In this document: one piece after another, positions 8,132-63,640 of the stretch
Numbering within the stretch: the stretch's first letter is position 1
Layout of the letters: every line of letters starts with the position of its first letter
DNA from: Mobula hypostoma
Lineage: Eukaryota
Direction of reading: 5' to 3'
Assembly (NCBI RefSeq): GCF_963921235.1
Contig: NC_086097.1
Coordinates: 11,966,001-12,030,000, forward strand
Length of the DNA: 64,000 nucleotides
Translations under genes and position numbers: made by a program
Notes under the pieces: generated by a model
Seen by the model: only the letters and a program-made list of their open reading frames with translations
What the model was told of the DNA's origin: nothing
The model's database searches: none

Positions 8132-8684
8132 TGTAACCCCCAGATTCAGTGGGCTGCATTAGTCTAAGGGAAGGCAGTCGCCACCCCCGCCAAACTGATG
8201 AAATCTCGATTATGTGGATGCTGCGTGATGTGTTTCCCTGTTATAACTCAGTACCATGAAAGATCAGACGGTACACCATATGCAATTAAACAATTGAGCT
8301 TTATAATTCTTAAGTTGACTAGAGGGTTAGTACAGAAACAAAAAGGCAAAGGGCCCATTTTAATGAAAGAGTCTATTGTGCACTTACGGTTTGCCATCCT
8401 TGAATTCCCCATCGATTTCCTCCGAGCGTTGTCGACACCAGGACCCTCACTCCAAGTCCACTCCATCCTGCGGTATACCAGCTCGCTCCTGTCACGTCTC
8501 CTCTCTTCACCTCTCACCGAACAAAAGTCCGCGAATACCTTCTTTCAGACATACAAGAAAGAAAAAACATGCCTCTCATTGGATGGCGTACATTCCAAAG
8601 GCCCCGTTATCTCGAGTCATAACCCAAACACTGTTGCTACAGAGAAACCAATACATTAGCAGTGAAACCTCACAGAGCGTTACA
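8132..8684. mobile_element. Solo LTR (Gypsy-like)
   Basis: Inverted termini TGTAAC...GTTACA, 553 bp, CpG-rich relative to flanks; no clean 4-bp TSD. Confidence 0.65.
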
Positions 8685-9774
8685 TGTATTTGTGACATTT
8701 TGCATCCCAATTTGCCACTGCTTTTCCTACATCATAAAAATTATGGTACGTTAAATGAATTTCATTGTTGGTAAAACAAGTCTTTGTTTTTTTTTCTTTC
8801 CTTTACTTCACTTAATAATCATATAAGGTTTACAACAAAGTTGGAGGCTATTTGGCCCATCATTTCTTTTCTGGTTGAAGATGAAGTAACAAGCCTAATT
8901 CTAAAGTCGAACACCGGATCTGCAGCGCTTGAAGTTATGGCTTTATTTGAAGCATGATTGTGGGTTTTAAATATTTTGTTTATTTGCTTTTTATTGTCTT
9001 TCTTTTTCTTTCCATCTGCTGGATTAAAAAAGAAAACAAGTTGCATTCAGGAAATAGCTTTTTCAAAACTTTAGAGGAGTACTTTGGATCTTTGCATTCC
9101 TGATATTAGGGGAGATGCACTAATTTCCTGAATTCTACAGCTTGAAATTTATGACAGCAAGTTCTGAAGCTTCTTAAAAGGGGCAAGTAAACCAATTTCC
9201 AATATTGTCATGTCACCTACTCCCCATGGAAAGATGAGGTAAGGACAGATTGAAACATTCCTGCCTCCCATTGGGTGAAAAACACCAGTACAAGTTTGCA
9301 TTATAAAACAGATATTAAATTGCAAATTAAATTTGGAACATTATTTTTATCTATAATTAATAGGGCATGAACTTTGGTGCATAGATCTTCATTTCTGTTT
9401 AATTCTGGAATGCAAATTTAATTACAGTTAGTGCCATGAAAATAAACAGGCAAAAATCTGCATGGGGATTAAAATGTCTTTTAAATAAATTTACTCTTAA
9501 TTGGTTGAGCTCAATTATTTATGATTATTATTGCAGGCAATTTGTTTCAGGAGCCAATTTCACCTTTCTGTTATTTTAAACTAATTCATAGGGGGCAATT
9601 TTAAATTCCAAGTGATTCCAAAGTGAGTACAAGTATAAGAGTACTGGTAAAATATTGCCCCACTCCCCACCAAAAATGGATCAAAGATTGACTACTGCTC
9701 ATATAGCTGTCAAAAACTCGCCTTAGACAGAAGTACAGATGGTCCCTGGGTTAAGAGATCCTGAGTCCTGACTT

Positions 9775-12305
9775 ATAGAAACATAGCAACATAGAAAATA
9801 GGTGCAGGAGTAGGCCATTCGGCCCTTCGAGCCTGCACCGTCATTTATTATGATCATGACTGATCATCCAACTCATAGCCCTGCACCAGCCTTCCCTCCA
9901 TACCCCCTGATCCCCGTAGCCACAAGGGCCATACCTAACTCCCTCTTAAATATAGCCAATGGACTGGCCTCAACTGTTTCCTGTGGCAGAGAAGTCCACA
10001 GATTCACCACTCTCTGTGTGAAAAAGTTTTTCCTAATCTCAGTCCTAAAAAGCTTCCCCCTTATCCTCAAACTTTGACCCCTCATTCTGGACTTCCCCAA
10101 TATCGGGAACAATCTTCCTGCATCTAACCTGCCCAATCCCTTTAGGATTTTATACGTTTCAATCAGATCCCCCCTCAATCTTCTAAATTCCAAAGAGTAC
10201 AAGCCTAGTTCATCCAGTCTTTCTTCATATGAAAGTCCTGCCATCCCAGGAATCAATCTGGTGAACATTCTTTGTACTCCCTCTATGGCAAGGATGTCTT
10301 TCCTCAGATTAGGGGACCAAAACTGCACACAATACTCCAGGTGTTGTCTCACCAAGGCCTTGTGCAACTGCAGTAGTACCTCCCTGCTCCTGTACTCGAT
10401 TCCTCTCGCTATAAATGCCAGCATACCATTCGCCTTTTTCACCGCCTGCTGTACCTGCATGCCCACTTTCAATGACTGGTGTATAATGACACCCAGGTCT
10501 CGTTGCACCTCCCCTTTTCCTAATCAGCCATCATTCAGATAATAATCTGTTTTCCTATTTTTGCTACCAAAGTGGATAACTTCACATTTATCCACATTAA
10601 ATTGCATCTGCCATGAATTTGCCCACTCACCCAACCTATCCAAGTCACCCTGCATCCTCTTAGCATCCTCCTCACAGCTAACACTGCCGCCCAGCTTCGT
10701 GTCATCCGCAAACTTGGAGATGCTGCATTTAATTCCCTCATCCAAGTCATTAATATATATTGTAAACAACTGGGGCCCCAGCACTGAGCCTTGCGGTACC
10801 CCATTAGTCACTGCCTGCCATTCTGAAAAGGTCCCGTTTATTCCCACTCTTTGCTTCCTGTCTGCCAACCAATTCTCTATCCACATCAATACCTTACCCC
10901 CAATACCGTGTGCTTTAAGTTTGCACACTAATCTCCTGTGTGGGATCTTGTCAAAAGCCTTTTGAAAATCCAAATATTCCACATCCACTGGTTCTCCCCT
11001 ATCCACTCTACTAGTTACATCCTCAAAAAATTCTATGAGATTCGTCAGACATGATTTTCCTTTCACAAATCCATGCTGACTTTGTCCGATCATTTCACCG
11101 CTTTCCAAATGTGCTGTTATCACATCTTTGATAACTGACTCCAGCAGTTTCCCCACCACCGACGTTAGGCTAACCGGTCTATAATTCCCCAGTTTCTCTC
11201 TCCCTCCTTTTTTAAAAAGTGGGGTTACATTAGCCACCCTCCAATCCTCAGGAACTATTCCAGAATCTAACAAGTTTTGAAAAATTATCACTAATGCATC
11301 CACTATTTTTTGGGCTACTTCCTTAAGCACTCTGGGATGCAGACCATCTGGCCCTGGGGATTTATCTGCCTTTAATCCCTTCAATTTACCCAACACCACT
11401 TCCCTACTAACATGTATTTCGCTCAGTTCCTCCATCTCACTGGACCCTCTGTCCCCTACTATTTCTGGAAGATTATTTATGTCCTCCTTAGTGAAGACAG
11501 AACCAAAGTAATTATTCAATTGGTCTGCCATGTCCTTGCTCCCCATAATCAATTCACCTGTTTCTGTCTGTAGGGGACCTATATTTGTCTTTACCAGTCT
11601 TTTCCTTTTTACATATCTATAAAAGCTTTTACGGTCAGTTTTTATGTTCCCTGCCAGTTTTCTCTCATAATCTTTTTTCCCCTTCCTAATTAAGCCCTTT
11701 GTCCTCCTCTGCTGAACTCTGAATTTCTCCCAGTCCTCAGGTGAGCCACTTTTTCTGGCTAATTTGTATGCTTCTTTTTTGGAATTGATACTATCCCTAA
11801 TTTCTCTTGTCAGCCACGGGTGCACTACCTTCCTTGATTTATTCTTTTGCCAAACTGGGATGAACAATTGTTCTAGTTCATCCATGCAAGCTTTAAATGC
11901 TTGCCATTGCATATCCACCGTCAATCCTTTAAGTGTCATTTGTCAGTCTATTTTAGCAAATTCACGTCTCATACCTTCAAAGTTACCCCTCTTTAAGTTC
12001 AGAACCTTTGTTTCTGAATTAACTATGTCACTCTCCATCTTAATGAAGAATTCCACCATATTATGGTCACTCTTACCCAAGGGGCCTCTCACGACAAGAT
12101 TGCTAATTAACCCTTCCTCATTGCTCAAAACCCAGTCTAGAATAGCCTGCTCTCTAGTTGGTTCCTCGACATGTTGGTTCAAAAAACCATCCCGCATACA
12201 TTCCAAGAAATCCTCTTCCTCAGCACCTTTACCAATTTGCTTCACCCAATCTACATGTAGATTGAAGTCACCCATTATAACTGCTGTTCCTTTATTGCAC
12301 ACATG
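9775..12305 (-). mobile_element. Young 5'-truncated CR1/HER1 LINE
   Basis: APE C-terminal part (IMGDFN...SDH) plus RT (GVPQGSVLGP, FADD) plus 3' UTR and (tttctatg)n tail. Confidence 0.97.
9873..12305 (-). pseudogene. CR1 ORF2 (APE-RT), 5'-truncated, two in-frame TGA stops
   Basis: ORFs 11943-12320, 10524-11939 and 9873-10508 are in the same frame, separated only by single stops. Confidence 0.93.
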
Positions 12306-12389
12306 TCTAGATGAGAACAAGATCTCATATTATTAAACTCAAAAGTCTGATGTACATTTGTTCTTATGCTTGACAGAACTAGTTTCCCA

Positions 12390-24286: not shown

Positions 24287-24639
24287 TCAAAATTGACAAC
24301 CAGCTACAAAGTCGAACTGAATGCCTTAAGACCTGGGAATTAAGTGGAGGGATCGAGCAGTATGCCTCCCCAACACCCCCAGGCCGGGTTCATGAAGGAA
24401 GGACCTGGAGGGAGGACCTGGGGACCGAGCATCGTGCCTCCCCCAGTGAACCCTGGTGGAGCAAGTGTACCCAGTCCAGGTGACATGGCGGAGCGCATCA
24501 CCCACCTCCCTCGCGACCCGCAACGGGGAACTCAAGACACCGCAACCATGGGAGGACGAGCAACATAGCAGGCACCACCGCACCACTGGGGCAAAAGGAA
24601 GACCAACAGGCCTTAATAATTTACCACAAGGTCCACACT

Positions 24640-25758
24640 GAAGCTCCCCAGATACAATGGTACCAGCTGCCTGGAGCCTTACCTGGTCCATGTCAAACTT
24701 GCAGTATGGCACAAAGGGTGGAACCCCACTGAGTTTGAAGTGCATCTACAGGGCCCTAGTAATGGCACTGGAGTGGCATTTCGAGCAGAGATTATTGGGG
24801 GAAGCAATGAGGAAAGAACTGGGCAGCAGATGCCGCCATATGGACAAAAGTCTGAGGATGTTTGCAGCAGAATTCTGCCACTGTGCTTGGCATGGCTACA
24901 CCACTTCCCTCCCGCGACCCAGGCTTGCTCTCCACGGCTTTGTGAATGCACTGATTCTGGAGCGTCTTTGGCAGCGTGTACGCCTGACATCACCATCATC
25001 GCTGGCCGAGGTGGTGGCAGGGGCAGAGAGGGCTCAAGTAATTTTAACCCCCTCCCCCAAAGCGTTCCAGCATTCCCCCCCCCCCCAAAGCGTTCCAGCA
25101 TTTCCATGCATGCCACGAGCCCAGGTTTGTGTCACCGAGGCAGAGGGTGAAACTGATGAGAAGGAGTCCCTGACACAGGTTCGACCAGCATCGCGCCAGC
25201 CCCACCATGTGCCATGGAGTTTTCTCTGCCACCGGTGTGACAAGGCAGGCTATTTGGCCTGGGATTTCCCCAGACCAGCCCACCTCAGCCTCCGGGAGAC
25301 GGGAGTGGGCGATGCTACCCGAGACCTCCAGCAGAATCCCTCCATTGTTTCCTGTCCGGGTGGGTCGTTTGGGTGAAGAGCAAGGCTTATATGTGGACGG
25401 TTGGTGGAGGCCTTTAGATGCCGTCCATTAGTGGACGCAGTATCAGCCATCACCACCACCCATCTATGTGTCCTCCCCAACATGGACCACCTTCCTTGCC
25501 TGGGTGGACAACGATTGAGGTCCAGCTGGCTGCTGTCACTGGCGACTGTGCAGCGATGAGAGGGAAGAAGTGGCTGCGCATTGCAGTGGGCCACGAGGTG
25601 TGGTTGGCCAACGTCCGCAAGTCCTACATCACTGGCCTGGACTTACTGTCCCGCAGGGGGACCCACGTGGATGTGCCAGGGGCAATGCTCTACATTGTTG
25701 TTGAAGCTGTGGTTGTCCAGCAGGGCAGCTCCAGGAAGTGCAGCAACAATCACCACCG
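24640..25758 (+). pseudogene. Gypsy gag and aspartic protease, degenerate
   Basis: PRYNGTSCLEPYL; ORF 24657-25376 capsid-like with decayed knuckle CHRCDKAGYLAWDF; LVDAVS protease-site remnant at ~25425. Confidence 0.75.
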
Positions 25759-26319
25759 GTAAAATAATAAATAAGTAAGCAATAAATGTCGAGAACATGA
25801 GATGAAGAGTCCTTGAAAGTGAGTCCATAGGTTGTGGCGAGTGAAGTTGAGTGAAGTTGATTCAAGAGCCTGATGGTTGAGGGGTAATGACTGTTTCTGA
25901 ACCTGGTGGTGAGTCCTGAGACTCCTGTACCTTCTTCCTGATGGCATCAGCGAGAAGAGAGCATGTTCTCACGTAAATTAAATATAAATTATACACAATT
26001 TTACTGTCAGCTGTCTCATTGTCCTTAAGCAGCTTTGGCATTCCAAGCTACAAATTACATCTGTAAATGCCTTGTGAAATCTGTTAACTGTTTCTGTTTA
26101 ATGTATGAACACCCCACAATAAGTAGTGGAGCATATTCTATCATAATATTCTAATATCACTTTATTATAGAGCACCCCATCAGGTCTCTCAGAAACAACC
26201 AAAGGGACAGATGTATTATTAGTAGGTAAATAGCAACTTTTAGGCACTTAAACCTATTTAGCATGTCATAGGTCTGTTCAGTCACACAATTAGTGGATCA
26301 GTGTGTGCAACATGATTGA

Positions 26320-26905
26320 TTGGCACCGCAGTAGCATAGCGGTTGGCGTGGTACTATCACAGCTCAGGGCGTTCCAGAGTTCAGATTTCAATTCCGATGC
26401 TGTTCTGTCAGGAGTCTTTGTATGTTCTCCCCGTTGAAAGTATGGGTTTTCTCTGAGTGCTCTGGTTTCTACCCAGAGTCCAAAGACATAATGCATAGGT
26501 TATTTTAAAAACGCAAACAAGAGGAATTCTGCAGATGCTGGAAACTCAAGCAACACCCATCAAAGTTGCTGGTGGACGCAGCGGGCCAGGCAGCATCTCT
26601 AGGAAGAGGACGATCTCCCCCCTCCCCCTCCCACTTTCAAATCTCTTACTAACTCTTCCTTCAGTTAGTCCTAACGAAGGGTCTCGGCCTGAAACGTTGA
26701 CTGTATCTCTTCCTAGAGATGCTGCCTGGCCTGCTGCGTTCACCAGCAACTTTGATGTGTGATACATAGGTTATTTGTTGATTGTAGATTGTTGTGTAAT
26801 TAGATTAGGGTTAATCAAGGTTGTGGGGGGGGGGGGTGGTTCCTGGGGTGCTGTAACTTAATGTGGAGGAAGGGCTTACTCCGTGCTCTATCACTAAATA
26901 AATAA
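26320..26905 (+). mobile_element. V-SINE (HE1-like) interrupted by a PLE insertion
   Basis: Head and V-domain 26320-26505; continuation and tail 26762-26905. Confidence 0.85.
26506..26761. mobile_element. Short PLE-derived insertion with inverted pLTR arms
   Basis: TSD at(g/a)cataggttattt (26491-26505 / 26762-26776); HHR at 26666-26703 with core mutation CTAACGA. Confidence 0.9.
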
Positions 26906-32656: not shown

Positions 32657-34261
32657 CAGTGCCTATGAAAAGTTTTTATCCCCCCTTGGAAGTTTTCATG
32701 TTTTATTGTTTTAGGACATAACAGTGGATTTGATTTGGCTTTTTTGACACTGATCAACAGAAAAAAGACTCTTAAGTGTCAAAGTGAAAACAGATCTCTA
32801 CAAAGTGACCTAAATTAATTACAAATATAAAACTCAAAATAATTGATTGCGCAAGTATTCACCCCCTTTAATACGACACACCAAATCATCACTGGTGCAG
32901 CCAATTGGTTTTAGAAGTCACATAATTAGTTCAATGAAGATCTGTTTTTGGAGACCTATGTGCAGTCAAGGTGTTTCAACTGATTGTAGTAAAAATACAC
33001 CTGTATCTGGAAGGTCCTACTGCTGGTGAGTCAGTAACCTGGCAAAAACTACACCATGAAGATAAAAGAACACTCCAAGCAACTCCACAAGAAGTTTATT
33101 GAAAAACACTAAGTCAGGAGATGAATACAAGAACATTTCCAAATCGCGGAATATCCCTTGCATTACAGTTAAGTCAATCACCAAGAAATGGAAAGAATAT
33201 GGCACAGCTGTAAGTCTGCCTGGAGTGGGCTGTCCTCAAAAACTGAGTCACTATACAAAAAGTGGACAAGCGAACGAGGCCACCAAGAGACCTATGACAA
33301 CTCTGGAGGAGTTGCAAGCTGAGATGAGAGAGACTGAACGTACAACAACTGTTATCCCTGGTGCTTCACCAGTCACAGCTTCATGGGAGTGTGACTAAGA
33401 GAAAAACACTATTGAATAAAACTCACATGAAATCTTGGCTAGAATTTGCCGGGAGGTATGTGGGAGACTCTGAAGTCAGCTGGAAGAAGGTTGTATGGTC
33501 TGATGAAACCAAAATTGAGCTTTTTGCCCATCAGACTAAATGCACCGCACATCATCAAAAACACACCATCCCTACCATGAAGCACGGTGGTGGCTGCATC
33601 ATGCTGTGGGGATGCTTCACTGCAGTAGGCCCTGGAAGGCTTGTGAAGGTAGAAGGTAAATTGAATGCAACAAAGTACAGAGAAGTCCTGGAGGAAAATG
33701 ATGCAGTCTGCAAGAGAACTGTGACTTAGGAGAAGATTTGTTTTCCAGCAAGCCAATGACTCCAAGCATAAGGCCAAAGCTACTCAGGAATGGCTTAAAA
33801 ACAACTAAGTTAATATCCTGGAGTGGCCAGATCAGAATCCAGACCTCAATCCAATTGAAAATTTGTAGCTGGATTTGAAAAGGGCTGTTCACCCATGATC
33901 CCCATGCAACCTGACAGAGCTTGAGCAGTTTTCTAAAGAAGAATGGGGAAACATTACAGTGTCCAAGTGTGCAACACTGACAGAAACCTATCCGCACAGA
34001 CTCTAGGCTGTAAGTGTTGCCAAAAGTGCATCTACTAAATACTGACTTGAAGGGAGTGAATGCTTATGCAATCAATGATTTTGTGTTTTATATTTGTAAT
34101 TAATTTAGACCAATTCGTAGAGATCTGTTTTCACTTTGACACGAAAGAGTCTTTTTGTATTGATCAGTGTCAAAAAGCCAAATTAAATCCCCATGACTCA
34201 ATGTTATAAAACAATAAAACATGAAAACTTCCAAGGGGGTGAATACTTTTCATTGGCACGG
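32657..34261 (+). mobile_element. Full-length Tc1 DNA transposon (IR/DR type), defective
   Basis: TA-CAGTGCC...GGCACGG-TA; ~220-bp TIRs with inner repeats (~32853, ~34050); 1605 bp. Confidence 0.95.
33056..34045 (+). pseudogene. Tc1 DDE transposase with stops and frameshifts
   Basis: MKIKEHS..., WKKVVWSDETKIELF, KHGGGCIMLWGCF, WPDQNPDLNPIENL, ...ASTKY*. Confidence 0.92.
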
Positions 34262-35345: not shown

Positions 35346-36457
35346 ATCACAAACACAAGAAAGTCTGCAGATGCTGGAAATCCAGAGCAACACACACAAG
35401 GTGCTGGAGGAACTCAGCAGGTCAGGCAGCATCTATGGTAAAGAGTCGACGTTTTGATCCGAGATCCTTCATCAGTACTGGAAAGGAAGAGGGAAGAATC
35501 TAGAACAAGAAGGTTGAGGGGAGGGGAGGAAGAAGTACAAGGTGGTTCCAGCAGTCCCGGTGTAGCCTCCTGTATATCAGTGAGACCTGACGTAGATTGG
35601 GAGATCTCTTCGTCAAGCACCTTTGCTCCGTCTGCCACAAAGAGTGGGAATTCCTGATGACCACCCATTTCAATTCTACATCCAATTCACATTTTGACAT
35701 GTCAGTGCACTGCCTCCTCTACTGCTAGGATGAGGCCACACTCAGTTAGAGGAGTAAAACCTTATAATTCCTCTGAGTAGCCTCCAACCTGATGGTATGA
35801 ACATCACTTTCTCGAACTTCTGGTAATTGCAACAACCCCGCTCTCTTTCACCATTCCCCATTTCTGATTTGTTCTCTTACCTTATCTCCTTCCTGCCCTC
35901 CTCCTCTCTCTGATGCTCCTCCCCCTTCCCTTTCTTCCGTGGTCTTATAACCATATAACAATTACAGCACGGAAACAGGCCATCTCAGCCCTTCTTGTCC
36001 ATGCCGAACTCTTATTCTCACCTAGTCCCACCGACCTACACTCGCCCCATAACCCTCCATTCCTTTCCTGTCCATATATCTATCCAATTTAACTTTAAAC
36101 GACAACATCGAACGTGCCTCAACCAGTTCTGCTGGAAGCTCATCTTCTGTCCTCTCCTTTCAGATTTCCCCTTCTCCAGCCATTTACATTGTTTCTTTCA
36201 CCAATCAACTTCCCAGCTCTTTACTTCATCCCCTCCACCTCTCCCGGTTTTAACTATCACTTGCCATCTTGTACTTCTTCCTCCCCTCCCCTGACCTACT
36301 TACTCTGACTTTTCCCCTTCCTTTCCAGTCCTGATGAAGGGTCTCAGACTGAAATATCGACTGTTTACTCTTTTCCATAGATGCTACCTGACCTGCTGAG
36401 TTCCTCCAGCATTTTCTGTGTGTTGCTAGGATTTCAAACATCTGCAGATTTTCTTGT
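35346..36457 (+). mobile_element. 5'-truncated Penelope-like element with inverted pLTR at its 5' end
   Basis: Inverted pLTR 35346-35545; GIY-YIG C-terminal half (LLYISET*RRLGD...THFNST...SLQPDGMNITFSNF*) 35552-35826; direct pLTR to 36457 with HHR-like 36326-36363; CR1 tail nested at ~35945-36140. Confidence 0.9.
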
Positions 36458-36904
36458 CAATGAACTACTATTTTTCACCCAAAAGAGTGACACCACACCA
36501 ACTAATCAGCTGCCAGAGTAAAATGTTAATCGATCATTTACTTTCATTGCACTTAGCCTGCAGAATGTTGCCATAGTTCACTGGCAACATCCTAGATATC
36601 CCCTTGGCTCTTCATCTCATGTTCTCGATATTCATTGCTGATTTAGTTTCATCATCGTCAAGGGCCCTCACCACCCAAGCCTTGCTCTCTTCTTGCTACT
36701 GCCATCAGGAAGGAGGCACAGGAGCCTCAGGTCCCACACCACCAGGTTCAGGAACAGGTATTACCCTATGAATATCAGGCTCTTGAACCTGTGTGGATAA
36801 CTTCACTCACGTCAACACCAAACTTATTTTACAACCTAAAGACTCACTTTCAAAGTCTCAACAACTCTTACTTCCAATTTTACTTATTTACTCGTTGTTC
36901 ATTT

Positions 36905-54207: not shown

Positions 54208-54500
54208 GTTGGCACGGTAGTGTAGTGGTTAGCACAATGGTTTACTGTACCAGTACCAGCGACCTGGGTTCAATTCACACCACTGCCTGTCAGGAGTTTG
54301 TATGTTCTCTCCTTGAAAACATGGGTTTCTTCCAGTTATTCTAGTTTCCTCCTACAACCTACACATCGATTGGTAGGTTAATTGGTCATTGTAAATTGTC
54401 CTGTGATTAGGCTAGGATTAAATTTGGATGTTTCTGGGCAGTATGGTTCAATGGACCGGACGGGCCTACGCTGCTCCATATCACAATAAGTTAAAGAATA
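54208..54500 (+). mobile_element. V-SINE (HE1-like)
   Basis: tRNA head, V-domain, tail. Confidence 0.85.
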
Positions 54501-54775
54501 AACGGATGCGCAATACTGGTCTTTGTCTAAGAATTGGAGGAATAAGTTCAACTCCCAGCATGGGAACTAGGAACTAGGTACAAAATATTCCTGTAGTCTG
54601 TGTGAATCGGCTAGTTTAACAGAGTTTATTAATTTGGATTTTGAGCATCGATACCATCATTTAATGCTCATCCTGTCCCTAAACTTTTATTCCTGATTTA
54701 CTTCATTGTCTACACTTAGTTCTCCAAAGGCTAAGAGAAATATGGTGAGTGGAAAAATATCAGATTGTCATAGAA

Positions 54776-54883
54776 ACAACACACATCAAAGTTGCTGGTG
54801 AACGCAGCAGGCCAGGCAGCATCTATAGGAAGAGGCGCAGTCGACGTTTCAGGCCGAGACCCTTCGTCAGGACTAACTGACTA
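54776..54883 (-). mobile_element. 108-bp PLE pLTR-derived insertion
   Basis: Exact 12-bp TSD attgtcatagaa (54764-54775 / 54884-54895); near-identical to 57897-57992. Confidence 0.9.
54838..54875 (-). ncRNA. Minimal type I hammerhead ribozyme, intact core
   Basis: TAGTC-CTGACGA-AGGGTCTCGGCCT-GAAA-CG-TC^GACTG; predicted cut between 54843 and 54842. Confidence 0.8.
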
Positions 54884-55224
54884 ATTGTCATAGAACACCC
54901 TTTTGATTCACCGATGCTCTTTGGTGATGTAATTCAACCATCGCTACCCAGTATGTGACTCATAAACAATGACAATGTGATGGGTTCTTTACTGCATCTG
55001 ATATAGCACAAATATCCTCTAACTCTGGGGTGGTTTGGGAAGAGAATTAAATTCTTGCTTTGACAGTGACATGGATGTCCCAGTTTTGAATAAACAAAAA
55101 AATGGTGAAACTGGCAGGAGTCAGTGACAAAGGAGATTCTGCAGGTGCTGGAAATCCAAAGCAACACACACAAAATGCTGGAGGAACTCAGCAGGTCAGG
55201 CAGCATCTATGGAAATGAATAAAG

Positions 55225-56265: not shown

Positions 56266-56694
56266 CAGAGTTTCGGGCTGAAACCCTTCATCAGAACTGA
56301 AATCAGCAATCTGTGACATTTGTAGCCAAACTGATTCACCGAGACTACAGGAACATTCGATATATATCGCTAGGGCGCCTAAGACTTTTCACAGTACTGT
56401 ATTAGTCAATGTGGAGTGGAGAGCGAATTTGTAAATCTGGTGGAAGCAAAGGATGTTGGGAATAGTGAGGGTGAAGTGTTAAGGGTAGGGGCATGGGACA
56501 GGTGGCAAAGAAGGAGTGACTGGGACAGGGGGTAGCGCAAGTGCAGACACACCCGGCCCTGAGACACCAGGCAAGGTCATTTGATTCTAATAGTTTGTTT
56601 ATTGATCATTGTAGAATATCTCTCTGGGTGCTTTGTGCTTGCTCCCCTCTATCTTCTGCTTTTCTCAACCAAGATTCCCCTCTCCCTGACCCCT

Positions 56695-57075: not shown

Positions 57076-57950
57076 TAAATCCACAGTGCTGGTAAAACTG
57101 TGAAGGTAAGTAGTACTAAATTTTTCAATTCCAGTGGACTAAATTGTTTAATAAATGTAAATAAATTTGTAAGCAACGGGGCTGTCTCTTAAGTATTTGA
57201 ATAAGTTATTAATTAGAAGCAGAACTGTACCCATCAATGTGTGTGGTAAGAAAGCAAATATAATTACTTAATAAAATAATGTAAGATAAAACAAATCAGC
57301 AATACTGAATACATGCCACAAATATTTCACAGTTTGTAAAAAGCTATAATGCTGCTGATTCATTTCTGTATCTAAATATAAATCCTCATATTCCACAATT
57401 AGATATTGGTTTTGAAATTGCTTTTAATGGAATTGAGATCTGAGTTAATCTCGAGCTCAATTTGTAGTAATTCCATTGAAATATATTCCACTTTGTACTG
57501 ACAAAATAACGGTAAGTTATTTCTTATTTGCTGCCAACGCTGCTCTCGTTGCCATTTTATTGAATAGGTGGAAAGACACCTCATCTGATATCAGAATCAG
57601 AACCAGATTCAGAAGCAAAATCAGATTCAGGTTCAATATCGTTGGCACACCTTGTGAAATGTGTTGTCTCTGCGGCAGTGGTACAATGCAATACATAAAA
57701 ATAAAAATAATGACCGACTTACAGAAAGTATAAATATATTAAATAGTTAAATAAGTAGTGCAAAAATAAAAATAAAAATGTCGTGAGGTAGCGTTCATGG
57801 GTTTAATATCTGAAGGCAGAGAGAAAGAAGCTGTTGAGTGTGTGGCTTCAGGCTCCTGTACCTCCTTCCTGATGAGAACAGCGTAAGTCCTCGGTGCATC
57901 AAAGTTGCTGGTGAACGCAGCAGGCCAGGCAGCATCTCTAGGAAGAGGTA

Positions 57951-57988
57951 CAGTCGACGTTTCAGGCCGAGACCCTTCGTCAGGACTA
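57951..57988 (-). ncRNA. Minimal type I hammerhead ribozyme, intact core
   Basis: TAGTC-CTGACGA-AGGGTCTCGGCCT-GAAA-CG-TC^GACTG. Confidence 0.8.
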
Positions 57989-58029
57989 ACTGAAGGAAGA
58001 GAAAATCTCTTACTCACTCTTCCTTCAGT

Positions 58030-58067
58030 TAGTCCTGACGAAGGGTCTCGGCTTGAAACGTTGACTG
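58030..58067 (+). ncRNA. Minimal type I hammerhead ribozyme, variant
   Basis: TAGTC-CTGACGA-AGGGTCTCGGCTT-GAAA-CG-TT^GACTG (GUU triplet, weakened stem II). Confidence 0.7.
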
Positions 58068-58404
58068 TACCTCTTCCTAGAGATGCTGTCTGGCCTGCTG
58101 CGTTCACCAGCAACTTTGATGTGTGTTGCTTGAATTTCCAGCATCCGCAGAATTCCTGTTGTTTAAGTCATGGGTGACTGGTTTCCTTAATGATGGATGC
58201 CGCCTTTTTGAGGCATTGCTCCTTGAAGATGTCCTGGATACTATTGAGGTTAGTACCCATGATGGAACTGTCTAAGTTTACAACTTTCTGCAGCTTATTT
58301 TGATCCTGTGCAACGCGGCCCCGCCCCCATTACCGGATGCGATGCAGCCAGTTAGAATGCTCTTTACAGTACACCTGTAGAAAACTGTTGAATATCCTGA
58401 TTAT

Positions 58405-63323: not shown

Positions 63324-63640
63324 GTGTTGGCGCGTGGCCAAGTGGTTAAGGCGTCAGTCTAGTGATCTGAAGGTTGCTAGTTCGAGCCTCAGCTGAGGCA
63401 GCGTGTTGTGTCCTTGAGCAAGGCACTTAACCACATGTTGCTCTGCGATGACACCGGTGCCAAGCTGTATCGGCCCTAGTGCCCTTCTCTTGTACAACAT
63501 CAGTAGCGTGGAGAGGGGAGACTTGCAGCGTGGGCAACTGCTGGTATTCCATATAACCTTGACCAGGCCTGCGCCCTGGAAACCTTACAAGGTGCAAATC
63601 CATGGACTCAGGAGACTAACGGATGCCTATTTATTATTTA
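63324..63640 (+). mobile_element. tRNA-head CORE-like SINE, copy 3
   Basis: Matches 23751-24058 including the tail; exact 13-bp TSD ttacatgtataaa. Confidence 0.9.

Follow-up and report, generated by a model that had tools for sequence, protein, structure and literature searches.

Minimal hammerhead ribozymes (min-HHRs) occur in thousands of copies per genome, mostly as single motifs in truncated Penelope-like elements (PLEs), including Xena, Poseidon and Neptune of fish, and the available text of the study that described them names no cartilaginous fish among the hosts (Cervera & De la Pena 2014, PMC4209133). The hammerhead of Poseidon in Anolis carolinensis lies near the 3' boundary of the copies; its cleavage depends on the PLE protein, insertion proceeds without cleavage, and the principal template is uncut RNA (Frangieh et al. 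2024, PMC11167929). AT-rich DNA is nicked in both strands by the PLE protein, which starts reverse transcription at two internal sites one tail apart (PMC11167929), the tail being 30 to 40 bp long and present at one end only (PMC8557442). Penelope insertions in Adineta vaga have inverted pseudo-LTRs (pLTRs), an optional tail at one end and target-site duplications (TSDs) proven by empty sites, and a head-to-head twin with one tailed and one tail-less arm is the typical PLE pattern (Arkhipova et al. 2013, PMC3846280). Animal non-LTR retrozymes, described in a preprint that covers one cartilaginous-fish genome, derive from PLE pseudo-LTRs (bioRxiv 10.64898/2026.07.22.740005).

The locus compared here with these systems is a 108-bp insertion in a 64-kb window (the whole stretch of DNA that was analysed), from a host whose repeat types look like those of a cartilaginous fish. 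By its testable features, the insert is a truncated copy of an endonuclease-bearing PLE with a min-HHR. It is very probable that this copy, from a young subfamily, was 5' truncated and dead on arrival and that its hammerhead is a pseudo-LTR passenger, most likely silent. The features of the insertion are as follows.

54764..54775, no strand: left copy of the 12-bp TSD, an exact repeat and the single 12-mer at the empty site in run X5.
54776..54883, minus strand: the 108-bp insertion, made up of 1 extra nt, 104 nt of PLE 3' end and a 3-nt filler (repeat alignment; X5 joint).
54777..54880, minus strand: young-subfamily PLE 3' end (part of the pseudo-LTR), 5' truncated, with a short, tail-less 3' boundary (alignment with longer arms).
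54838..54875, minus strand: minimal type I hammerhead motif of 38 nt, matching the min-HHR description in the available text of PMC4209133.
54842..54843, minus strand: predicted cleavage bond after C17 (54843), by hammerhead numbering; the copy contains both sides.
54844..54847, minus strand: ACGU palindrome in place of stem III and loop 3, predicted to pair solely with a second copy (PMC4209133).
54881..54883, minus strand: 3-nt filler at the 5' junction, which recreates a 5-nt repeat of the stem I 5' arm (sequence).
54884..54895, no strand: right copy of the 12-bp TSD, an exact repeat.

The duplication, ATTGTCATAGAA, cannot be extended on either side, has only these two occurrences in the whole window when both strands are searched, and has a probability of arising by chance of about 4e-5 (analytical, with ±10 nt of slack). 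Contigs from four of 24 listed public runs were aligned to positions 54470-55110 (641 nt). Runs X1 and X15 are labelled as organism A (two studies), X5 as organism B and X9 as organism C; the empty-site comparison consists of X1 and X5, the X9 contigs not spanning the site and the X15 contigs not reaching the flanks. A single 643-nt contig of organism B, with 227 letters on its shorter side, joins 54763 to 54884. The 120 nt that it skips are the 108-bp insert plus one 12-mer, so that the empty site keeps one 12-mer, and 15 of 520 flank positions differ between this contig and the window (2.9%). Contigs of organism A from X1 span both insertion junctions with 0 differences, though X1, as a possible source of the window, is not independent, and no empty-site joint is among the X1 joints listed, a list from which some joints are missing. 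Because organism B has the empty site, the insertion at 54776-54883 is real and is either younger than the split between organisms A and B or was polymorphic at that time. An earlier note on this DNA had claimed a perfect 12-bp TSD around a 108-bp insert and a recent amplification, and had proposed the empty-site check; the exact duplication and the unoccupied orthologous site in a relative with 2.9% diverged flanks bear out both claims.

In each of the four runs, family sequence extends past 54880 in the upstream direction, and the filler beyond it was probably added by slippage. An origin of the 5' junction from spliced RNA is rejected, since 4 nt that precede the first AG acceptor-like site are retained in the copy. 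In longer arms of the family (58003-58035 and 26639-26672), stem I is closely preceded by a branch-point-like sequence, a pyrimidine tract and an AG, the elements of the splice consensus. This signal is similar to that of Drosophila virilis Penelope, in which the end of the pLTR intron adjoins helix I (PMC4209133).

The window holds four other young arms, which make up two head-to-head twin insertions.

57897..58163, no strand: sister insertion B, a head-to-head twin of the same subfamily (arm alignment).
26506..26764, no strand: sister insertion C, a head-to-head twin (arm alignment).

The identities of the insert to the four arms are 94/97, 98/104, 95/101 and 55/59. The left arm of insertion B is tail-less with an unchanged core, the right arm has a 35-nt tail and a C17-to-U change, and the candidate TSD (57884-57896 and 58164-58176) matches at 11 of 13 positions, with 2 mismatches. 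Insertion C has an exact 12-bp TSD (26494-26505 and 26765-26776), a tailed left arm that lacks the hammerhead and a tail-less right arm with G5-to-A and C17-to-U changes. The core is unchanged in two of the four hammerhead-bearing young arms. In each twin, one arm ends within 7 nt of the 3' end of the 54776-54883 copy and the other runs 35 to 45 nt further; the tails are 35 nt in the right arm of B and at most 45 nt, including a T-run, in the left arm of C, and the 54776-54883 copy, the left arm of B and the right arm of C have none. All five young arms are short and free of ORF sequence, and their 5' ends all differ. The near-identity that had been claimed between the insert and the arms at 57897 and 26506 is thus upheld, but the further claim of three near-identical, TSD-flanked copies is not, because the other two are two-armed inverted insertions, with a broken core at 26506 and an imperfect TSD at 57897.

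The high copy number that had been proposed for the subfamily is evident in X1, in which 61,578 contigs align to the 641-nt stretch, 14,950 of them at an identity of at least 99%. Summed depth in this run is 3e6 to 1.5e7 over the insert versus about 16 on the flanks, which is not a copy number; divided by the flank value and, to allow for overlapping words, by 31, it would give a crude floor of about 7e3 to 2e4 copies, a figure that takes in older copies at a likeness of at least 88%. The C that the insert carries at 54836 accounts for 32% of the depth in X1 and 35% in X15, versus 2.5% in organism B and 5% in organism C. This difference in frequency between the organisms, in unphased alleles, suggests an amplification burst skewed to organism A.

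An older relative of the subfamily is also present in the window, as a composite at 35351-36460 with an inverted arm, a broken frame, a C/T-rich 3' region, a hammerhead and a tail.

35351..35545, minus strand: inverted arm of the older-subfamily PLE insertion (repeat alignment).
35546..35820, plus strand: older-subfamily GIY-YIG endonuclease fragment, C-terminal and broken (tblastn to P0001, E 5e-18).
35821..36460, plus strand: older-element 3' UTR, hammerhead in decayed form (36327-36365) and tail, split by about 200 bp of other sequence (alignment).

Young and older subfamilies are about 78 to 82% identical; the alignment of the insert to the older relative at 36327-36425 has 80 identities, 16 mismatches and 5 gaps. 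The endonuclease fragment, which has two in-frame stops in its first frame and one frameshift, is contiguous with the hammerhead end, and its frame matches 49 proteins at an E value of 0.001 or less. GIY-YIG Pfam matches cover the matched part in 5 of 10 homologues scanned (E 0.0006 to 0.008, below the curated cut-off), and the window fragment itself has no GIY-YIG match in Pfam. Both the PLE origin and the separateness of a young subfamily from an older one, as had been suggested, are therefore supported by the identity values and by the link of the older end to the GIY-YIG fragment. The link of the young subfamily to a PLE ORF goes through the older subfamily; the 64-kb window has neither an ORF for RT or endonuclease that belongs to the young subfamily nor any PLE RT. 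P0010 (RVT_1 and GIY-YIG) was rejected as a PLE partner; its RT part matches LINE frames of the window at about 40%, and it is possibly a chimeric prediction. Two of the three homologues displayed (P0001 and P0041) have a CX2-5CxxC linker and, from the GIY-like to the YIG-like motif, two intervening cysteines, and the window fragment begins downstream of the linker position. This linker marks Neptune/Nematis-type PLE endonucleases and is absent from those of Penelope and Poseidon (PMC8557442). The homologues of the fragment thus differ from Poseidon, and a Neptune/Nematis-type parent element is tentatively proposed from these protein sequences.

The reading of the insert as a truncated PLE is based on members of the family that extend upstream of 54880 and 35 to 45 nt downstream, and on twins in which one arm has a tail and the other lacks it. 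The GIY-YIG endonuclease of the element would nick the target with a stagger of 12 nt. RT would then start at the inner, tail-less site downstream of the hammerhead on uncut element RNA, copy 104 nt and halt 5 nt past stem I, where the 3-nt filler would be added, and joining of the second strand across the 12-nt stagger would duplicate the 12-mer. The 54776-54883 copy would represent one priming event, and the twins two, with both nicks used and each start site used once. Because the copy spans the predicted cut site, its template RNA appears to have been uncut at 54843/54842. As in Poseidon of Anolis, the hammerhead is near the 3' boundary of the copies and there are two 3' boundaries one tail apart, with copies that would come from uncut RNA; unlike in Anolis, the core here has no start codon, having ACG at N7 (PMC11167929). 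The inverted pLTRs, the optional tail at one end and the TSD proven by an empty site are all as in the Penelope insertions of A. vaga (PMC3846280). However, the TSDs there are 8 to 10 bp versus 12 to 13 bp here, and the 54776-54883 copy is a single short arm. The indirect link to a PLE ORF, the sub-threshold GIY-YIG matches and the longer, 12-bp TSD count against the truncated-PLE reading, and so does a lower frequency of core CpG changes in X15 (given below), for which this reading has to assume that transcripts come from younger copies.

A different history for the insert would be that a unit of about 105 nt spreads with PLE enzymes as a non-autonomous mini-element, like a SINE or a retrozyme. 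The shortness of the five young arms and their lack of ORF sequence are in keeping with such a unit, the C at 54836 that is common only in organism A indicates that a distinct source lineage exists, and animal retrozymes do come from PLE pseudo-LTRs, with which the insert further shares a type I hammerhead, non-coding sequence and the occurrence of dispersed monomers (bioRxiv 10.64898/2026.07.22.740005). Ragged 5' ends, different in each of the five arms, point instead to truncation products rather than a fixed unit, and the family extends past 54880 in every run. Rfam lists no tRNA-derived head inside the insert. By definition a retrozyme has two or more hammerhead-bearing units in tandem (bioRxiv 10.64898/2026.07.22.740005), and the copy is a monomer with no tandem array, by which a non-LTR retrozyme is ruled out. 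A mini-element is thus very improbable, and truncation of a PLE is the preferred account.

The hammerhead consists of a 5-bp stem I, CUGACGA, an extra A, a 4-bp stem II with a tetraloop, GAA, ACGU and C17. All core positions (C3-A9, G12-A14, A15.1, U16.1 and C17) are present on the minus strand, as had been claimed. The description of the insert as little more than a hammerhead does not hold, since the motif makes up 38 of the 108 nt (35%), and intactness applies to the core, the motif having no loop 3 and a U for C at position 11.1. Features of the min-HHR descriptor that were found are the CUGANGA, GAA and NUH core, the absence of loop 3, the palindrome, a short stem I and the extra nucleotide after A9. 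In the terms of the available text of PMC4209133, the motif agrees with min-HHRs in being of type I with a stem I of 4 to 5 bp and an extra nucleotide between 9 and 10.1, in lacking loop 3 and having a palindromic 15.2-16.2 (15.1-16.1), and in occurring mostly as single motifs in truncated PLEs but also as inverted pairs 100 to 700 bp apart. Unlike in min-HHRs, the 4-bp stem II is closed by G10.1.U11.1, or by A-U in another register (position 11.1 is at 54851), and the highly conserved G10.1-C11.1 pair, which is outside the descriptor, is absent (PMC4209133). U11.1 is common to all four hammerhead-bearing young arms, and an older copy at 56270-56298 has C. The young subfamily appears to be fixed for U11.1 and yet strongly amplified, which fits cleavage that is dispensable or weak.

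No hammerhead family was found by Rfam at an E value of 1 or less, which reflects the loop-less form of the motif and not its absence. Stems I and II have modelled pairing values of 0.02 to 0.09 in the insert alone and 0.23 to 0.33 with 100-nt flanks, and the minimum-energy fold of the insert, in which the hammerhead is not formed, is no better than that of shuffled sequences (z +0.99). The ACGU can pair only with a second copy, because there is no loop 3, and this intermolecular duplex has a modelled 4 bp and -3.1 kcal/mol. A transcript of insertion B is predicted to fold as one long hairpin (-228 kcal/mol) with both motifs buried. Among the loose ends listed, there is no pile-up of contig ends at the predicted cleavage site.

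In all four runs, a few contigs return from 54873-54875 to 54836-54840. These are tandem duplicates of the hammerhead alone, with a period of 35 to 40 nt and differing fillers. One possible origin is template jumping across stem I, by which natural cis-dimers would form; at 1 to 3 contigs per run, the duplicates are possibly noise.

The core is decaying. CpG positions in or beside it (54842, 54843, 54845 and 54846) have 6.8 to 8.0% transitions each in X1, and 54804, the sole non-core CpG position listed, has 12.4% in X1 and 8.2% in X15, a single comparison site that cannot show slower decay of the core. These figures leave out the CUGACGA positions, which have no variant rows, probably because the aligned stretch ends too close to them. 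In X15 (contigs of unknown strand from what is guessed to be RNA), the same four core CpGs are changed at 1.9 to 2.8%, about threefold more rarely than in X1, so that core-intact copies look over-represented.

The solo hammerhead is most likely silent, since the motif is dimer dependent and has no partner in cis. Single min-HHRs do not cleave in vitro and dimers do so weakly (PMC4209133), and one of nine frog retrozyme dimers was cleaved, the other eight remaining uncut (bioRxiv 10.64898/2026.07.22.740005). For the window, 300 of 383 unmasked stop-to-stop frames of at least 40 aa were scanned, with four Pfam matches: two transposases, one LINE endonuclease and one ALKBH8_N frame. The last we take to be the 3' end of a LINE. 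No host exon was found among these frames, a scan that would miss short exons. The suggestion that the genome may hold many potentially active ribozymes in introns is therefore not supported, given a dimer-dependent motif that the twins would bury, core CpGs decayed by 7 to 8% and no host exon found.

A hammerhead active within a host transcript would have to cleave in trans, by pairing of its ACGU with another copy or with element RNA. Its core nucleotides are unchanged, partners exist in a family this abundant, and the rarity of core CpG changes in X15 (one run) would agree with such activity. Set against this are the 4-bp intermolecular helix, the replacement of C11.1 by U11.1, the in vitro behaviour of monomers and dimers, the frames scanned for host exons and the decay of core CpGs in DNA, all of which leave trans cleavage by this copy distinctly improbable. 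On the wider scale, a burst that followed the split from the closest sampled relative would have left thousands of near-identical solo min-HHRs, of which sense copies in host pre-mRNA would be cut in trans by ACGU pairing with element RNA, aided by the PLE protein, so that expression of the element clips host transcripts; this too is doubtful in the extreme, if marginally less so. Finally, a 12-mer common to the two ends occurs in 3 of 5,000 intervals drawn at random from this repeat-rich window. The absence of exactly 108 + 12 nt in organism B and the organism A contigs that cross both junctions unaltered nevertheless refute chance and assembly error as sources of the 12-mer repeat, and a deletion remnant of a longer element is extremely improbable.

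Several other features of the window were observed. Long, nearly open LINE frames (472, 216 and 128 aa) with single stops between them and an endonuclease Pfam match lie at 9873-12329 on the minus strand, presumably of CR1 type. A remnant of a Tc1/Sleeping Beauty-type transposase with Pfam HTH matches is located at 33066-33729 on the plus strand. The region 24326-25760 is GC rich, with several overlapping open frames (the longest of 244 aa, with no Pfam match) and a 28-nt tandem repeat, and gives the impression of a gag-like retroelement remnant. Two tRNA-like heads below the Rfam gathering score (54211-54288 and 63333-63395, plus strand), the first about 480 bp from the insertion, are probably SINEs. 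An unmasked region at 8168-8774, whose open frames (163 and 135 aa) have no match in Pfam, is a possible exon.

Inverted pLTRs, tails and TSDs with empty sites have already been described (PMC3846280, PMC8557442). No paper on the young subfamily was found in the literature searched, and the supplements of PMC4209133 and of the retrozyme preprint may list related sequences. What is new at 54776-54883 is a clean empty site together with a lineage-skewed allele, not a new element or kind of ribozyme. The insertion is useful for distinguishing two close species by its presence or absence, and its tail-less 3' end provides in-genome support for internal initiation by RT. If it were true that solo min-HHRs cleave host RNA in trans, the numerous PLE hammerheads of vertebrates would gain a cellular effect.
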